IMG/VR virus record: IMGVR_UViG_3300009702_000026
Location: 1,718 to 65,717 of that record
Source of the DNA: a virus
Direction: 5' to 3' (one strand)
DNA: 64,000 bases
The notes under the pieces were generated by a model, which did not search any database, was not told where the DNA came from, and worked only from the letters and a program-made list of their open reading frames with translations. A program made the position numbers and the translations under genes. Shown piece after piece: positions 7,301 to 58,700 of this stretch (the first letter of the stretch is position 1; the number at the start of each line of letters is the position of its first letter).

Positions 7301-7364
7301 TTGACTATCCCCTGCTAGTTGGTACAAAAGGGGTCTTGATTCCGCATGGAGTGCGGGAAGGAGG
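7301..7364 (+). promoter_or_regulatory. sigma70-like promoter + 5' hairpin + SD (copy 1 of a repeated element)
   Basis: TTGACT(7301)-16-TACAAA(7323) preceded by TGG; hairpin 7340-7358; AAGGAGG 7358-7364; near-identical to 11517-11578. Confidence 0.75.
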
Positions 7365-24552: not shown

Positions 24553-24784
24553 GGTGCCCACCCCCGGCGAACCGAAGACTCTCAACATGCGTCATTTACT
24601 GTGCTACGATTCTGACCTCACGGGCCTTCTAGGGGTTCCGGTACGAGGACCTGAGAGCTTGGCCTAAGGGCCTGCCCGCCAAGGAGATCGACGTCACAGC
24701 GTCGGTCACCGCATGTTGGGAGTCCTCGATTCACCGGGTGGGCACCCCTAGAAGGCCCGCTCTTTATGCGGGCCGGGAGGCCCG
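24553..24784 (+). ncRNA. putative structured RNA / leader upstream of the replication initiator
   Basis: Long-range complementarity: 24553-24563 with 24736-24746, 24577-24591 with 24710-24724, 24599-24603 with 24695-24699, and a crossing 14-bp pair 24622-24635 with 24745-24758. Confidence 0.5.
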
Positions 24785-26034
24785 TATTGAAACCGTCTGA
24801 CGAGAAAACTCGAAGCGAGCGCCAGCGCTTCATCAACCCCTGGCGCCGGTACGTCGGATCGTTCGTTCCGAACTGGTTGCTGTGCCGCCACGAGGTATCC
24901 GCACAGGCGAAGTTGCTCTACGCCCGCCTCGCTCAGTACGCGGGGCAGAAGGGCGTCGCATACCCCCGGCAAGACACCCTCGCCCGAGAGCTGGGCAGTC
25001 TCTCGGAGCGCACTGTGAGGCGCTACGTGGCTGAGCTGCGCGAGCACGGGCTCATTCACGTCGAAGACCGGCGGAACAAGAACTTCCCCAACAAGTACAA
25101 GTTTTTGGACCATCCCTGGCAGCACGAGGGCGATGTCATCGATGACGATGAATCACCGATGAGTCCCCCGGATGAGCACAGGACAGAACTGTCCTCAGGT
25201 ACAGGGGGACCACAGGACAAGGTTGTCCTATCCGGACAGGACAAGGTTGTCCTCTCTAGAAGAGACTCACTAGAAGAGAATAACTCACAAGAAGAGAATC
25301 ACACTGCCGGAGCTACCCGCTCCGGCCGTATTCGGGCGAGAAAACCCCCGAAGCCTCCTCCGCGCCCGAAGGTCTTCGAGGACACTCCCTCCCTCGGGAG
25401 TGAAGGAGAGGACTCCTCGGGCGAAGACCCAGGAGAAGGGGCCGCAAAACCGGCCGCTCGTCCGAAAGCTCGGAGGCGCCTGACGAAGTCCCAGAAGATC
25501 GCTGAGGAAGCCGCGGAGAGGGCCAAGGCGCAGGTCTCGGCCAACACGCAGAAGCGCTTGAAGGCTGCGGAGGTGCAGGAGCAGCGGCAGAAGAACCTGG
25601 CAAGCAAGGGTCCGAGGGATCCGGGAGTGCGGGCCTTGGAACAGCTCTGGTACGAGCTGATGGAGAGGGACCTACCATCGTTGACTATCGCCCGCTGGGG
25701 CGGGAAGGAGCGCGGTCAAGCCCGGAAGTTGCAGGACAAATACGGCGTGCAGATCGCTCTCGATGCGCTACGCTATGTGGTAGCAAACTGGAACGGAATC
25801 AACGAGCGGATCTTCAAAGGGCGGGCGAGCCACCCCACGATCGGGATGGTTTTGAAGCTCCACGAGACGCTGGTCATCGAGGCGCAGAAGTGGTCACAGC
25901 ACGAGCAAACGATCTCCGAATGGGAGGCCTGGACTAGGGAGAACCCCTACTCGCTAAACGCACCTGGAGATCTCGATGAGAGGTATCAGCGGGCGATGAA
26001 GGAGCTAGAGGCCCTCGGAATCGTAGGGTCCTGA
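24766..26034 (+). CDS. replication initiator protein (N-terminal winged HTH, lambda O-like architecture)
   Basis: AKLLYARL...AYPRQDTLARELGSLSERTVRRYVAELREHGLI HTH; followed by DnaC-like, DnaB, DnaG; alternative TTG start 24787 with GGGAGG SD. Confidence 0.8.
   Translation: MRAGRPVLKPSDEKTRSERQRFINPWRRYVGSFVPNWLLCRHEVSAQAKLLYARLAQYAGQKGVAYPRQDTLARELGSLSERTVRRYVAELREHGLIHVEDRRNKNFPNKYKFLDHPWQHEGDVIDDDESPMSPPDEHRTELSSGTGGPQDKVVLSGQDKVVLSRRDSLEENNSQEENHTAGATRSGRIRARKPPKPPPRPKVFEDTPSLGSEGEDSSGEDPGEGAAKPAARPKARRRLTKSQKIAEEAAERAKAQVSANTQKRLKAAEVQEQRQKNLASKGPRDPGVRALEQLWYELMERDLPSLTIARWGGKERGQARKLQDKYGVQIALDALRYVVANWNGINERIFKGRASHPTIGMVLKLHETLVIEAQKWSQHEQTISEWEAWTRENPYSLNAPGDLDERYQRAMKELEALGIVGS
25178..25253. 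repeat. three palindromic iteron-like repeats (putative origin) inside the initiator gene
   Basis: ACAGGACA-N4-TGTCCT at 25178-25195, 25212-25229, 25236-25253, followed by an A/G-rich lower-GC tract 25256-25300. Confidence 0.7.
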
Positions 26035-26689: not shown

Positions 26690-28054
26690 ATGGACCTCGA
26701 TCTGATCTTCGTGGCGTCCATCCTGAAGGGTGGGCAGGACGCGGTGCGGGACGCGCTGGAGAAGGTTCCTGAGGACCTGCTCCAAGGCGAGGGGCTGACT
26801 GCCTACAAGTTCGTGCGCGAGTACGTGCGCGACTACAAGGCGATCCCGGACCCGGGGATGGTCCACGGCAAGACCAACGTGAAGCTGCCGGACCCTCCTC
26901 CGGCGCCGCCGCTCTTCTTCATCGATGAGATCCTGAATCGACAGCTCCACGGCGAGCTGGGCAAGTACCTCAAGGAGATCATCGGTCACTACGAGGCGCG
27001 CGATCCGAAGCAGGCGTACCAGGCCTACGAGGAGGGGCTGCGAGAGCTTCGGAAACTCGACACGGGTCAGGCCAAGACCATCGCCCTGCCCTCGCTCGCG
27101 CCGGAGTTCCTGGACTACTACGACAGGCTCAAGGCGGGCGAGACGGGCATCCTCACGCCGTGGCCGACCATCAACGAGGCGACGCTAGGGTTCTGGCCCG
27201 AGGACTTCGTGCTCTTCGTTGCACGTCTGGGAGTCGGTAAGACCTGGACGCTGGTCTTGCTCGCGAACTACGCCTGGCACGTCTGCAAGAAGAAGGTCCT
27301 CTTCGCGACGACGGAGATGAGTCGTATCAAGATCCTCCAACGCTGGGTCGCGGTTCACTACCGGCTGGCCTACAACGACCTCCGTCGCGGCCGTCTCGAT
27401 GCCTTCGCCGAGAAGAAGATGCGCGATGGGCTGGAAGCGATTCAGGATGCGGAGGGGCTCGACATCATCGGCGGTGACTTCGACTTCCGCATCGAGAGTT
27501 TGGAGGCGGCCATCGAGTACGCCGAGCCCGACATCCTCTTCGTGGATGGTGCGTACCTCCTGCGTACTTCGGGCGACGGGCGCTTCGAGAAGGCGGCCAA
27601 CTCTTTCGACGAGCTGAAGCGCGTGGCGAAGCGGAACGGGATCCCGGTCGTCAGCTCGACGCAGTTCAACCGTCAGGTGAAGCAGGACAAGGTCAACTCC
27701 GCGTCGGTCGAGAAGATCGCTATGTCGGATGCCGCAGGCTGGAACGCGGACTTGATCTATGCGCTCCTCCAGTCCGAGGACATGAAGAAGGACCGGCGGA
27801 TGCTGTTCAAGCCGATGAAGTTCCGAGAGGGGTCCGGCGAGGAGGTCGAGACCTGGTGGGACTTCGAGGTCATGAACTTCGATGAGCTGCCGAAGGGCCC
27901 GAGCGGTCCCGGGCCTGCCATCCCTTCGGGCACAAGTGGGGGTGGAGGTGGGGGCGGTAGTACAAGCTCGGATGAGGACGACCCCTTCGGGACTGGAGCG
28001 CTCGACTTCGGTGATGACGACAAGAAGCCGAGCGATGCGGACGTGCCGTTCTAA
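26690..28054 (+). CDS. dnaB: DnaB-like replicative helicase
   Basis: ARLGVGKT Walker A, FATTEM, ILFVDGAYLL, STQFNR, I..SDA.G..AD; acidic tail ending DADVPF. Confidence 0.9.
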   Translation: MDLDLIFVASILKGGQDAVRDALEKVPEDLLQGEGLTAYKFVREYVRDYKAIPDPGMVHGKTNVKLPDPPPAPPLFFIDEILNRQLHGELGKYLKEIIGHYEARDPKQAYQAYEEGLRELRKLDTGQAKTIALPSLAPEFLDYYDRLKAGETGILTPWPTINEATLGFWPEDFVLFVARLGVGKTWTLVLLANYAWHVCKKKVLFATTEMSRIKILQRWVAVHYRLAYNDLRRGRLDAFAEKKMRDGLEAIQDAEGLDIIGGDFDFRIESLEAAIEYAEPDILFVDGAYLLRTSGDGRFEKAANSFDELKRVAKRNGIPVVSSTQFNRQVKQDKVNSASVEKIAMSDAAGWNADLIYALLQSEDMKKDRRMLFKPMKFREGSGEEVETWWDFEVMNFDELPKGPSGPGPAIPSGTSGGGGGGGSTSSDEDDPFGTGALDFGDDDKKPSDADVPF

Positions 28055-48019: not shown

Positions 48020-48313
48020 GTGCCTTCGGCTCTAGGTGTGCTTGCGTGTTGTGACGCTGACGAGACAGGGCTGGCGATTGTCCCCTCGGTCCGCGTGAGC
48101 GCCCGTGAGTTCGCCTTGATTCTCGCAGCCAACGGTGTGAGTGTCCGCCCTCTCGGACAGGGGTCGGCACAGGTGTGCGATTCCCAGGGTCGAAGGGCCC
48201 GCGTCGGAGGCGTAGTGATCATCGCGGCCAGGTCGTCGGAGGTCAGAAAGCTGAAGACGCACGCCCGGTTGTGCGGGGTCACGGTGATCCCTGTGCGTGT
48301 GGAGAGTCCTTGA
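48020..48313 (+). CDS. hypothetical protein
   Basis: 97-aa ORF abutting previous stop; GTG start. Confidence 0.45.
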   Translation: MPSALGVLACCDADETGLAIVPSVRVSAREFALILAANGVSVRPLGQGSAQVCDSQGRRARVGGVVIIAARSSEVRKLKTHARLCGVTVIPVRVESP

Positions 48314-48379
48314 TCGACGACCGATCTGTGGTACGGTGGGGCACACGTTGAGCGGTGACTCCGCTCATGGAACTAGGAG
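48310..48379 (+). promoter_or_regulatory. sigma70-like promoter + hairpin + SD
   Basis: TTGATC(48310)-16-TACGGT(48332) after TGG; hairpin TGAGCGG/CCGCTCA 48349-48367; AGGAG 48375-48379. Confidence 0.65.
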
Positions 48380-48387
48380 ATGGACAG

Positions 48388-48903
48388 ATGGCAAAGAACG
48401 AATCGACGAAGGTGAAGGGCGTGAAAGAGGCCCTAGCAGCGGTCAAAAAGGCGGGTGCCAAGAAGGCTCCGGCCAAGGCGAAGGCGGTCAAGAAGAAGGC
48501 TGCCAAGAAGGCCCCCGCTAAGACGAGGGCAAAGGCGAAGAAGGCTCCCGCCAAGAAGGCGGCGAAGGCCCCGGCCAAGAAGGCAGCACCGAAGCAGGCG
48601 GGCAGGTCGTCCAGCGGGCAGGGCGGTACGTCGCTCGATCTTCCGATCGAGAAGATCTCGGCCAAGGAGATGCGCGTGGTCGACGTGCTCAACGGCGCGG
48701 GGTCCGGCACTCGGGAAATCTGGACCATCGCCGATCTGGCGGCTGCGGCCTGGAAGAGCAAGTCCCGGAAGCAGGCCAACTCGTGGGTTCGCAACAGTCT
48801 CCGCCGCCTCATCCGAGGGGGCATCGTGGAGAAGGTCGAGCGCGGTAAGTTCCGGGTCTCCGATTCGGGCCGCAAGAAGCTGGCACGCGCGGAAGCCGCC
48901 TGA
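48388..48903 (+). CDS. histone H1-like (PAKK-repeat) protein fused to a winged HTH
   Basis: KKAPAK/KKAAK repeats then WTIADLAAAAW...WVRNSLRRLIRGGIVEKVERGKFRV. Confidence 0.8.
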   Translation: MAKNESTKVKGVKEALAAVKKAGAKKAPAKAKAVKKKAAKKAPAKTRAKAKKAPAKKAAKAPAKKAAPKQAGRSSSGQGGTSLDLPIEKISAKEMRVVDVLNGAGSGTREIWTIADLAAAAWKSKSRKQANSWVRNSLRRLIRGGIVEKVERGKFRVSDSGRKKLARAEAA

Positions 48904-48909
48904 GACCTA

Positions 48910-48955
48910 AGGACAAACCTGTCCTTTGAAGACCCTCTAGGCTCCGAGGTAGGAT
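48910..48955 (+). promoter_or_regulatory. AGGACA-N4-TGTCCT palindrome abutting a promoter-like TTGAAG-18-TAGGAT
   Basis: Palindrome 48910-48925 matches the iteron consensus; GTG of polA at 48962. Confidence 0.55.
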
Positions 48956-48961
48956 TCATTC

Positions 48962-51760
48962 GTGCGCTACGAGTACGTCACGGATGCGTCCGCCCTCGGA
49001 GCCGTCGCGAACCGCGTCGAGCAGGCGAAGCTGATCGGCTTCGACATCGAGACCACGAGCCTCAACCCGCGCGACGGGAAGATCAGGTTGGTCCAGCTCG
49101 CGATGGGGGATCCGGCAGATCCGGACATCTACGTCATCGACCTCTGGCAGACGGAAGGGCTCGGACCCGTGCTCGATGCGATGAGGGCGACGAAAGCTCT
49201 CTTCATCATCCACAACGCGAAGTTCGAGCAGAAGTGGTTCTGGTGGTTCCACCGCTTCGAGTTCTGGCCGGTCTTCTGCACGTTCCGCGCGAGTGCGATC
49301 CTCTACAACGGCCGGCGAGAGCTGAGGCACAATCTTGACTCGGTCATCGTTCGTGAGCTGCAAGAGCAGCCCTCGAATGTGGGGCAGGGGGGCTCCGACT
49401 GGACCAGGCCGAACCTCGGGAGCGAGCAGCTCGACTACGCGGCCGAGGACGTTCTTCGCCTCATGCGTCTCTACAAGGCGCTGAGGCAGAAACTCGTCCA
49501 GTACGGACTGCTCAAGTGCGCATTGATCGAGTTCGGAGTGATCCTCCCAGAATGTCGCACGGAGCTGAACGGCTTCCACCTCGCGAAGGACAAGTGGCTC
49601 GCGCTCGCCGAGGCCAACCTGCTCAACTCCAAGCGGCTCAAGGAGGAGCTGCTCGCGGAGCTGCCGCACCCGATGGGGCAGATGGCGCTGCCGGGGATGA
49701 CCCCCGGATGGAACCTGGGGTCGCCGAAGCAGATGCTCGGGTCGCTCCATCGGATCCGAGGTCTCCATGAGCTGGAGGACACGAAGGAGATCACGCTCGC
49801 CATGGAGGCGGGGCGCTTCCCGATCATCAAGAAGATCCTGGAGTGGCGCGGCTACAACCAGCGGGTGAAGACCTTCGGTCCAAACTACCTCCGGTGGGTC
49901 CGATCAGACACCGGCAGGATCCACACCGAGTACTACGCGCTCCTCGCGGCCGGACGCTACAGCTCGTCGAAGCCGAACCTGCAACAGATCCCTCGCGATG
50001 CCGACTACCGCGACTGCTTCACGGCGCCCCCTGGGCGAGTTTTGATCCTCGCCGACTACTCGGGCATCGAGATGCGCATCGTCGCGGAGATCAGCAACGA
50101 CCCTGAACTCATCAAGGTCTTCACCAGTGGGGACGATGCCCACTACGCGACGGCGGCTATCATCTTGGAGAAGCCCGTCTCCGAGGTGACCAAGGCCGAG
50201 CGGCAGTTCGCGAAGCCAGTGAACTTCGGACTGATCTACGGGATGATGCCGGCCAAGCTCGTCCTCTACGCGCAGTCCGGCTACGGCGTCGCGATGAGCC
50301 TCGGCCAGGCAGAGCGCTACCACAAGCGCTACTTCGACCGCTTCCGCGGAGTCGCCCGCTGGCACAACAAGGTGTCGCGGGACGGCCGGCGGCAAGGCAT
50401 CAGCCGCACCCTCTCCGGGCGTCTGCGCTGGCTCGACCCCCAGAAGAGCTGGAACGAGTTCAAGAACTGCTTGGACGCCAAGACTGAAGCCCTGACGCTA
50501 CGTGGGTGGGTTCCGGGGATGGAGCTTTCAAACGACGACGTGTTGTTGACGAAGAACATCGACACAGGTCGATTGGAGTGGCAAAAGGCGACCGAGATCA
50601 AGAAGTGGCCAGACTATGAAGGGCCCTTGATCGAGTTCCGAAGTCGATCTTTCAACGCCGTGTCGACGCCGGACCACCGCTGGATGGTCACGGAGAAGCA
50701 CTCAGGGCGGGCGGTGTGTCGGACGACGGAGCGGGTCTCCTTACACGGGGACGACCGAATCCACCGCACGGGGGACTATGTCGGGCCGGAGCGCTCGGAG
50801 TTCACGGATGCCGAAGTGGAGTTGGTGGGCTGGCTCGTGACGGACGGCTCAATCGTCCCTGTCCGTGATCGTGGTGGCAGGCCTAAGGTCGTGCTGTCCC
50901 AATCGGAGCGTGCGAAACCTGAGAACGTGGCTCGAATCGACGCCGCCCTAAATGCGATGGGGTGGGGTCATTCCCGCCATGTTGCGAGGCGCACTGAGTG
51001 TGTGACCTGGCATCTCCACAAGGCGGAGTCCGCCCGTCTTGCTGCTATGTTTCCAGGGCGTCTTCTCTCGGGAGTTTTTCTTAGGCAGCTCTCTAGGGAT
51101 CAGATCAACCTCTTGTTCGAGACCATGGTTCGAGGGGATGGGCATCGTGAGGAAGGCGGGAAGACGACTTTCTACGCGGGCACGAAGGAGGCTGCGGATG
51201 CGTTTGGGATGGTGGCTACGCTAGCGGGGTTTGCCACGAACACCCGGGTGCGCGATATGAGCCAGTACAGGCCGAAGTCGGACAAACTCCTGAATGTTCC
51301 GAAGATGGGTTTGATCTGGGTCGTGACGGTGTTGGCCCGGACGACCGCTCAAGTACTTGAAACGCAACGCAGGGACTTCCGTTCCAAGCAGCCGATCTGG
51401 TGCCCTATCGTGCCCAACACATTTTTCGTGGCGCGGCGTGAAGGTCAGGTGTTCGTCACCGGTAACACTCCAGTGCAGGGCACGGGCGCGGACGCGCTCA
51501 AGACCTCGATGCGGCTCGTCCAAGATCGGATCGACAAGACCTTCGGAGTTTCCGCCGCCGAGACGATGGACGGGCCGGTGGCGATCTGCCACCACGTGCA
51601 TGACGAGATCATATTGGAGTGCGACGAGGACGAGGAGATGAAGCGAGAGGCCTCGAAGCAGCTCCACGATGGGATGCACGAGGGCATGAGCCGGTTCCTC
51701 GACAAGGTCCCCGTGGTCGTTGACCCCTCGTCGGGTAGAAGCTGGGCGGAAGCAAAATGA
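48962..51760 (+). CDS. polA: family A DNA polymerase (3'-5' exo + pol) with intein
   Basis: FDIET, HNAKFE, YAAED exo motifs; PNLQQIP, ADYSGIEMRI, AK.VNFGLIYG, N/TPVQGTGAD, HDEII. Confidence 0.95.
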   Translation: MRYEYVTDASALGAVANRVEQAKLIGFDIETTSLNPRDGKIRLVQLAMGDPADPDIYVIDLWQTEGLGPVLDAMRATKALFIIHNAKFEQKWFWWFHRFEFWPVFCTFRASAILYNGRRELRHNLDSVIVRELQEQPSNVGQGGSDWTRPNLGSEQLDYAAEDVLRLMRLYKALRQKLVQYGLLKCALIEFGVILPECRTELNGFHLAKDKWLALAEANLLNSKRLKEELLAELPHPMGQMALPGMTPGWNLGSPKQMLGSLHRIRGLHELEDTKEITLAMEAGRFPIIKKILEWRGYNQRVKTFGPNYLRWVRSDTGRIHTEYYALLAAGRYSSSKPNLQQIPRDADYRDCFTAPPGRVLILADYSGIEMRIVAEISNDPELIKVFTSGDDAHYATAAIILEKPVSEVTKAERQFAKPVNFGLIYGMMPAKLVLYAQSGYGVAMSLGQAERYHKRYFDRFRGVARWHNKVSRDGRRQGISRTLSGRLRWLDPQKSWNEFKNCLDAKTEALTLRGWVPGMELSNDDVLLTKNIDTGRLEWQKATEIKKWPDYEGPLIEFRSRSFNAVSTPDHRWMVTEKHSGRAVCRTTERVSLHGDDRIHRTGDYVGPERSEFTDAEVELVGWLVTDGSIVPVRDRGGRPKVVLSQSERAKPENVARIDAALNAMGWGHSRHVARRTECVTWHLHKAESARLAAMFPGRLLSGVFLRQLSRDQINLLFETMVRGDGHREEGGKTTFYAGTKEAADAFGMVATLAGFATNTRVRDMSQYRPKSDKLLNVPKMGLIWVVTVLARTTAQVLETQRRDFRSKQPIWCPIVPNTFFVARREGQVFVTGNTPVQGTGADALKTSMRLVQDRIDKTFGVSAAETMDGPVAICHHVHDEIILECDEDEEMKREASKQLHDGMHEGMSRFLDKVPVVVDPSSGRSWAEAK
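50468..51466 (+). mobile_element. intein with LAGLIDADG-type homing endonuclease in DNA polymerase
   Basis: 333 aa CLDAKTEAL...STPDHRW...RREGQVFVTGN, then Thr; LVGWLVTDGS and LFETMVRGDG motifs; removal restores EFKN-TPVQGT. Confidence 0.9.
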
Positions 51761-58654: not shown

Positions 58655-58673
58655 TCTGATCGCCCTCCGTTTC

Positions 58674-58700
58674 TTGACAGCGAAATAGCAACCATATAAC
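58674..58700 (+). promoter_or_regulatory. sigma70-like promoter
   Basis: TTGACA(58674) with TATAAC at 58695-58700 in an AT-rich gap. Confidence 0.55.

Follow-up and report, generated by a model that had tools for sequence, protein, structure and literature searches.

What task can a single origin repeat have when it stands far from the origin, directly before a DNA polymerase gene? This question is raised by 64,000 nucleotides (nt) of virus DNA, positions 1,718 to 65,717 of the IMG/VR record IMGVR_UViG_3300009702_000026 (this whole stretch is called the window in the following). Three copies of the palindrome AGGACA-N4-TGTCCT form a predicted replication origin inside the gene of an O-like replication initiator with an HTH_36 domain, and a fourth copy, here named site 4, lies in the gap in front of polA, the gene of a family A DNA polymerase. 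It was our interest to clarify whether this copy is more than a chance match, which protein would bind it and what its occupancy might do. The extra palindrome before polA is a real observation and was confirmed; the initiator probably binds it, and an influence of this binding on polA expression is about evenly poised.

A solitary iteron palindrome before polA

48910-48925, no strand assigned: site 4, solitary exact iteron palindrome AGGACA-AACC-TGTCCT (AGGACAAACCTGTCCT), the sole copy beyond the origin cluster on the 68-kilobase (kb) contig
48909-48926, + strand: hairpin of a 7-base-pair (bp) stem (AAGGACA/TGTCCTT) and a 4-nt loop if transcribed, -7.9 kcal/mol, followed by the tail TTGAAG

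Read in the direction of transcription, the junction consists of the stop codon TGA of the preceding gene (48901-48903), the palindrome, the hexamer TTGAAG (48926-48931), 18 nt, the hexamer TAGGAT (48950-48955), another 6 nt and the start codon GTG at 48962. Site 4 is thus intergenic, 36 nt 5' of the polA start codon, and lies downstream of the origin cluster. The first-pass annotation of this DNA had placed the palindrome, the abutting hexamer pair and the start codon at these same positions, all of which were found correct on re-reading the sequence. It had also assigned the palindrome to the consensus of the origin iterons, and both half-sites are indeed identical to those of the three origin copies; the distance between the two loci, given there as 24 kb, was measured as 23.7 kb.

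The motif scan and chance expectation proposed in that annotation were carried out, and the motif did not turn out to be frequent by chance. Four matches to AGGACA-N4-TGTCCT are present in the window (25180, 25214, 25238 and 48910) versus 0.02 expected, and none of 100 shuffled windows contained four. No further copy appeared in the window when one mismatch was allowed, and the three matches with two mismatches are at chance level. The whole IMG/VR contig of 68,254 bp, which represents 68 kb of the approximately 181-kb genome of this uncultured phage, holds the same four copies and no more. The window has 42 perfect palindromes of the form 6-N4-6; apart from AGGACA, no arm among them occurs more than twice. 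As the non-coding share of the window is about 11%, the number of chance copies expected in gaps is approximately 0.002.

The predicted origin and the protein that may read its iterons

24766-26034, + strand: gene of the O-like replication initiator with the origin in its linker (PF13730, HTH_36, residues 45-97, 9.7e-13; phrog_270, replication initiation protein, 3.2e-16)
25180-25195, 25214-25229 and 25238-25253, no strand assigned: origin iteron cluster of three exact palindromes, found by motif scan; arrays lie in or beside HTH_36 genes of ten other phages
25254-25300, + strand: A-rich stretch of purines in which GAAGAGA(A/C)T recurs, a candidate DNA-unwinding element on account of its A/T content and of an equivalent tract in homologs
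26690-28054, + strand: gene of a DnaB-like replicative helicase, 3' of the initiator gene (PF03796, phrog_19)

The cluster at 25.18-25.30 kb is a predicted iteron origin of the lambda O / SPP1 oriL type inside the initiator gene, because three palindromes lie in an HTH_36 gene beside the most A/T-rich tract. What characterizes this type of origin is present here: at least three repeats with a spacing close to that of the DNA helix, a position inside the reading frame past the DNA-binding domain, and an A/T-rich region with a helicase gene nearby. The repeats, with start-to-start spacings of 34 and 24 bp, occupy codons 139-163 of the initiator gene, which encode the linker directly after the DNA-binding domain. 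The tract beginning at 25246 shares first place in A/T content among all 60-nt windows of the 64 kb, and in homologs the tract equivalent to the candidate unwinding element is a repeat coding for EEN. PHROG matches of the initiator are labelled 'replication initiation O-like' and 'DnaD-like helicase loader'.

Evidence on the binding protein came from other phages. Scanning IMG/VR for two nearby copies of the palindrome yielded ten further contigs (L005-L014) with guanine-cytosine (GC) contents from 31 to 69%, each with an array of two to five copies spaced 18-46 bp from start to start (mostly 22-26) and adjoining an A/T-rich repeat tract. Six of the seven long open reading frames that enclose such arrays encode HTH_36 proteins, and these share only 24-40% identity with the N-terminal domain of the window initiator. 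Since the motif stays constant while coding sequence and base composition drift, it bears the mark of a protein-binding site tied to the HTH_36 domain. The linker peptides of the closer initiator homologs P0002, P0003 and P0004 (P0002 being 51% identical) can encode the same half-sites, and a comparison of the recognition helices, RT[V/I]RR and RTVQR, is weakly consistent with the specificity, L007 being an exception. We strongly infer from these patterns that the HTH_36 initiator is the likely binder of AGGACA-N4-TGTCCT; and if the initiator reads this palindrome, the exact copy at site 4 should be bound too, so that the initiator probably binds site 4 as well.

Arrays of GGACA-N4-TGTCC together with HTH_36 genes were seen in phages and prophages, namely in IMG/VR contigs L005-L014 and in the metagenome-assembled genomes L086, L096 and L101 of Acutalibacteraceae. 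In a genome-wide scan for paired iterons, HTH_36 genes were linked to three of 38 matches, and the remainder were mostly unrelated tandem or dispersed repeats. Most paired AGGACA-N4-TGTCCT sequences on the bacterial contigs L080-L117 are multi-locus tandem arrays with periods of 30-45 bp and no link to HTH_36, for example in Porphyromonas loveana, Lentisphaeraceae, Opitutales and Pyrinomonadaceae; these appear to be a different repeat family with the same palindrome. GGACA-N4-TGTCC arrays inside HTH_36 genes would represent a widespread type of origin and may be used as a signature to locate origins in uncultured phages.

The initiators of two other genomes, G012 (L042:769-2151) and G013 (L043:31-2172), have the C-terminal half in common with the window initiator (30-35% identity to residues ~210-420) and possess a different N-terminal winged helix-turn-helix (wHTH) with weak Crp/GntR-like matches. 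In the linker of the G012 initiator three copies of its own iteron, GGTGACA-N4-TGTCACC, were found. Judged by these comparisons, the initiator is modular, and DNA-binding module and iterons would be exchanged together as in lambdoid O genes.

The spacer between the winged-helix gene and polA

48310-48334, + strand: predicted promoter of the recurrent class of this phage, TTGATC-N13-TGGTAC, before the winged-helix gene; a leader hairpin and the Shine-Dalgarno box AGGAG come after it
48388-48903, + strand: gene of a protein of 171 amino acids (winged helix at the C-terminus, tail rich in Lys, Ala and Pro), starting with ATG at 48388; constant partner directly 5' of polA
48904-48961, + strand: spacer of 58 nt and 50% GC, among the top 1% of A/T-rich 60-nt windows
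48926-48955, + strand: weak putative promoter, sigma-70-like hexamer pair TTGAAG-N18-TAGGAT, 8/12, under the scan threshold of 9/12
48946-48954, + strand: Shine-Dalgarno-like GAGGTAGGA, overlapping the proposed -10, with AGGA ending 7 nt before GTG
48962-51760, + strand: polA, family A DNA polymerase with a 3'-5' exonuclease domain (PF00476, PF01612, phrog_17)

Relatives of the polymerase were recovered in L039 (63% identity), L040 (58%) and L041 (53%), and an alignment-based metagenome scan for the winged-helix gene gave 33 loci, in 27 of which polA follows. Searches by blastn against GenBank phages, single-protein locus searches and searches of viral and metagenome contigs with initiator alignments yielded no useful close relatives. 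The GTG start of polA is supported by the alignment of its product from residue 1 onwards with relatives, including the L039 polymerase of 595 amino acids.

In the 27 metagenome loci the gap between winged-helix gene and polA has a median of 3 nt and measures at most 20 nt in 22 of them, with several overlaps of 4 nt; in L040 it is likewise 3 nt. Because of these short gaps the ancestral pair can be assumed to have been co-transcribed and translationally coupled, without room for a control element, and it follows that the 58-nt spacer would be a recent, lineage-specific insertion into an otherwise coupled gene pair. A comparison of the spacer with the rest of the window revealed no other similarity. 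The only clearly comparable spacer among the relatives was found in L039, the closest relative of this polA. Behind the stop codon it comprises a textbook intrinsic terminator (GC-rich stem and TTTTTCTTT) and then TTGCCC-N17-TAGGCT 24 nt before ATG. Both spacers are colinear in hairpin, TTTG, CCCTC and GGTAGGxT, with an alignment that is not significant (p=0.11).

Two signals of the spacer overlap. Sigma-70-like sites are scarce in this GC-rich genome: on the + strand of the 64 kb, 22 reach at least 8/12, five of them intergenic, and TTGAAG/TAGGAT is the sole such pair in the polA spacer. TAGGAT, however, reads equally well as a Shine-Dalgarno box, and most genes of the window carry GGAG, GAGG or AGGA 5-10 nt before their start. 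If TAGGAT is taken as the -10, the polA mRNA would be leaderless, unlike those of the other genes here, and the centre of the palindrome would come to lie at about -44.5 and not at -41.5. The specific class II activator position that the first-pass annotation had proposed for the palindrome is not supported, given a hexamer pair below the threshold, a -10 that may as well be a Shine-Dalgarno box and a centre that would be displaced. In L039 the aligned TAGGCT is too distant from the ATG for a Shine-Dalgarno function, which mildly favours the -10 reading.

The same annotation had named a weak terminator of the upstream gene as its alternative, and this one was dismissed as the main function. 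No intrinsic terminator was called at site 4 by the terminator scan, a T-run is missing, and the hairpin has -7.9 kcal/mol, whereas real terminators of the window, in the gaps at 13.5 kb and 52.7 kb, reach -19 to -32 kcal/mol and are thus stronger by a factor of 2.5-4.

Promoters of the recurrent class, TTGA-N14-16-TGGTAC, have four matches in the window versus 0.05 expected, all on the + strand and all in gaps (7301, 11517, 17707 and 48310); none is present in the polA spacer. With a predicted strong promoter at 48310, polA can be transcribed by read-through, and a promoter in the spacer is possible and not required. The class is of the extended -10 type, TGGTAC[A/G], and a leader of about 60 nt, CTAGTTGGTACAA...GATTCCGCA...TGCGGGAAGGAGGACG, is conserved behind its copies at 7301 and 11517. 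A near-consensus sigma-70 promoter (TTGACA, 15-16 nt, TATAAC) was noticed at 58672-58698 in the 56-nt gap before gene 58711, where the A/T content of 60-nt windows is highest; this promoter differs from the TGGTAC class, which suggests at least two promoter classes.

Further observations concern the flanking genes. Small winged-helix proteins with a histone-H1-like tail are encoded directly 5' of the polA of this clade at L039:2517-2903, L040:2518-2994 and in L047-L075. The homolog in L040 has weak matches to Mrr_N, AbiEi_4 and TrmB, and the winged-helix protein, for which there is no family assignment, might be an accessory of the polymerase or serve in DNA tethering. In L054, a distant relative, the gap of 143 nt before polA (847-989) contains GGACCAGGTTGTCC, one mismatch away from the core of iterons 2 and 3 of the window, besides repeated CGGACCAG and GCGTCC/GGACGC motifs. 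The polymerase of the window has 932 amino acids versus 595-598 in relatives, owing to an insert of 332 amino acids at 50468-51463 (residues 503-834). The insert begins with Cys after SWNEFKN and ends with ...VFVTGN before TPVQG, where relatives read SWNEFKN-TPIQG; it had no Pfam matches and looks like an intein in the active-site region.

Possible functions of site 4 and comparison with known systems

That site 4 is a functional operator of the initiator, through which polA expression would be affected in one direction or the other, stands in our estimate at an even chance. This reading was favoured because the palindrome is exact and rare, because it lies in a non-coding gap before a replication gene, because the spacer appears inserted into a coupled pair and because it is colinear with the terminator-promoter spacer of L039. 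A spacer with one iteron would have been inserted in this lineage between the normally coupled winged-helix gene and polA; a dimer of the initiator would occupy site 4 once the initiator accumulates, and its occupancy would change the amount of polA that is transcribed. The bound dimer might be a roadblock to read-through from 48310, standing where L039 has its intrinsic terminator and taking over the function of the latter, or it might contact RNA polymerase bound to the weak TTGAAG/TAGGAT pair next to it. More tentatively, and with somewhat less confidence than would make it probable, we suggest that an initiator of the lambda O type was recently recruited to regulate polA, in which case occupancy would determine how much polymerase is made relative to its winged-helix partner and would link polymerase supply to origin licensing.

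Several observations weigh against such an operator. The putative promoter of the spacer is weak, and its -10 doubles as a Shine-Dalgarno box. The window scan detected no copy of the palindrome in the gap upstream of the initiator gene; without an operator copy before its own gene, there is no independent sign that the initiator regulates transcription. No exact copy outside the origin array exists in the ten other phages with this iteron, of which two are represented by complete genomes that have terminal repeats, and in five of the ten, rechecked at one mismatch, all copies still lay within the origin. GGACA-N4-TGTCC is absent from the records of L039, L040 and L041, and none of the 33 + 3 loci with the winged-helix/polA junction contains the palindrome. 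In the 55-kb record of G012, in which, similarly to the window, about 21 kb separate polA and initiator, its own iteron (GTGACA-N4-TGTCAC) was found nowhere beyond its origin, even at two mismatches. Measured against a DnaA-type regulon, site 4 agrees in placing the initiator consensus in the control region of polA, a replication gene; however, it is neither conserved nor does it co-vary with the iteron type in relatives. Site 4 is best described as a variant, restricted to this lineage, of initiator sites beyond the origin; none of the relatives examined has it. The idea of the first-pass annotation that the initiator is a regulator coupling polymerase synthesis to origin firing is borne out as far as the iteron match, its rarity and the abutment to the sole sigma-70-like pair are concerned; since the site is missing in all relatives that were examined, the coupling would at most be a recent, lineage-specific one.

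Three other explanations were considered. The match to the iteron may be coincidental, site 4 then being a small hairpin with which the winged-helix transcript ends or which belongs to the intercistronic RNA (weak attenuator, stabiliser of the 3' end or one more short leader hairpin), or having no function at all. Hairpins of 6-8 bp are common in the gaps of this phage; the equivalent position is taken by a true intrinsic terminator in L039 and by small unrelated hairpins in L047 and L058; about 0.13 chance copies are expected over the approximately 430 kb of pooled phages with the iteron, so that a single one is conceivable, and the site is conserved in no relative. On the other hand, a 6-bp stem with a 4-nt loop would match the iteron arm in only about one of 4096 hairpins, the expectation is 0.02 per window and about 0.002 in non-coding DNA, and the hairpin does not qualify as a terminator and is 2.5-4 times weaker than the real ones. 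It moreover lies 20 nt from the Shine-Dalgarno box, whereas the recurrent leader hairpins abut theirs. Coincidence is thus regarded as unlikely, although with a share of probability that deserves attention. Still far less probable is the binding of another protein, either the upstream winged-helix protein or a regulator of the host, in place of the initiator, and we give this hardly any credence. The upstream protein does have a C-terminal winged helix and is always linked to polA, but 29 relatives keep winged-helix gene and polA together without the palindrome, for which reason the winged-helix protein was rejected as binder; the palindrome, in turn, tracks HTH_36 genes across unrelated phages, and three of its four copies are in the origin.

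The initiator could also act at site 4 in replication, by stalling the fork that arrives from the origin and helping the switch from theta to concatemer synthesis like SPP1 gp38 at oriR, or by looping or handcuffing with the origin in the manner of the inc or distal iterons of plasmids. Initiator-mediated looping is established in iteron plasmids, as Zzaman and Bastia are said to have described in 2005 (a reference of PMC5043065). The initiator gp38 of SPP1 binds the oriL repeats inside its own gene and an intergenic oriR about 13 kb away (PMC6316719), and the theta-to-sigma switch is proposed to be set off by forks that stall at gp38-oriR (PMC6316719; PMC3485210). In a similar manner site 4 is intergenic and located 23.7 kb downstream of an origin lying in the initiator's own gene. 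It is, however, a single palindrome without repeat array and without purine-rich A/T tract; its flanks do not resemble those of the origin (p=0.38 and 0.76), and no second site occurs in the ten other phages with the iteron or in G012. The GC skew shows no inflection at 48.9 kb, being dominated by coding-strand bias and hence uninformative. A replicative role of site 4 is therefore considered improbable. Two special cases were discarded: a second origin of the SPP1 oriR type, since the copy is single, none further at up to two mismatches lies within kilobases and an unwinding element is missing; and a partial duplication of the origin edge, since the flanks are dissimilar to the origin flanks and nothing else in the window matches the spacer.

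Compared with known systems, the origin of the window fits, as far as its sequence can be read, without peculiarity into the lambda O / SPP1 oriL kind. SPP1 gp38 (G38P) is alike in being an initiator with the origin in its own gene, followed by loader and DnaB-type helicase genes, and in having a second, intergenic locus many kb away (PMC6316719). The oriR of SPP1 differs in consisting of several direct repeats and an A/T-rich unwinding element among late genes, while here a single palindrome without unwinding element stands just before polA; as to homology of the window initiator with gp38, the analysis covered the PHROG matches with the two labels given above. With lambda O and ori-lambda the window shares palindromic iterons in the linker of the initiator gene beside an A/T-rich tract, and an N-terminal module that seems to be exchanged together with the iterons (G012 and G013); it deviates by the HTH_36 fold family of its initiator and by three iterons in place of four. 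We know of no functional site of lambda O outside ori and of no transcription regulation by this protein.

In the iteron plasmids pSC101, F, R6K and P1 (incA), extra initiator-binding copies beyond the minimal origin serve repression or handcuffing. An additional initiator-binding sequence outside the minimal origin is thus common to both systems, but plasmid operators lie at the rep promoter for autoregulation, whereas here none is found before the initiator gene and the extra site precedes polA.

DnaA, also a replication initiator, acts as a transcription factor at nrdAB and dnaN (PMC8203912), and the likeness to DnaA boxes (dnaA, nrdAB, dnaN) lies in an initiator consensus site at the promoter region of a gene of the replication machinery, where position and occupancy decide between activation and repression (PMC8203912). 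DnaA differs as an AAA+ protein with asymmetric 9-mer boxes and a conserved regulon, while the window has a site for a wHTH dimer once, in one lineage and without conservation. If the operator reading is true, site 4 would be a clean, recently evolved case of a phage origin-binding protein with a second job outside the origin, and a phage-encoded analogue of the control of nrdAB and dnaN by DnaA. To our knowledge, such a second job has been documented for bacterial DnaA and SPP1 gp38 and not for O-like HTH_36 initiators. What defines a second origin, an intrinsic terminator or a conserved regulon site is lacking at site 4; by analogy, the solitary site comes closest to the DnaA boxes that control nrdAB or dnaN, or to the oriR of SPP1.

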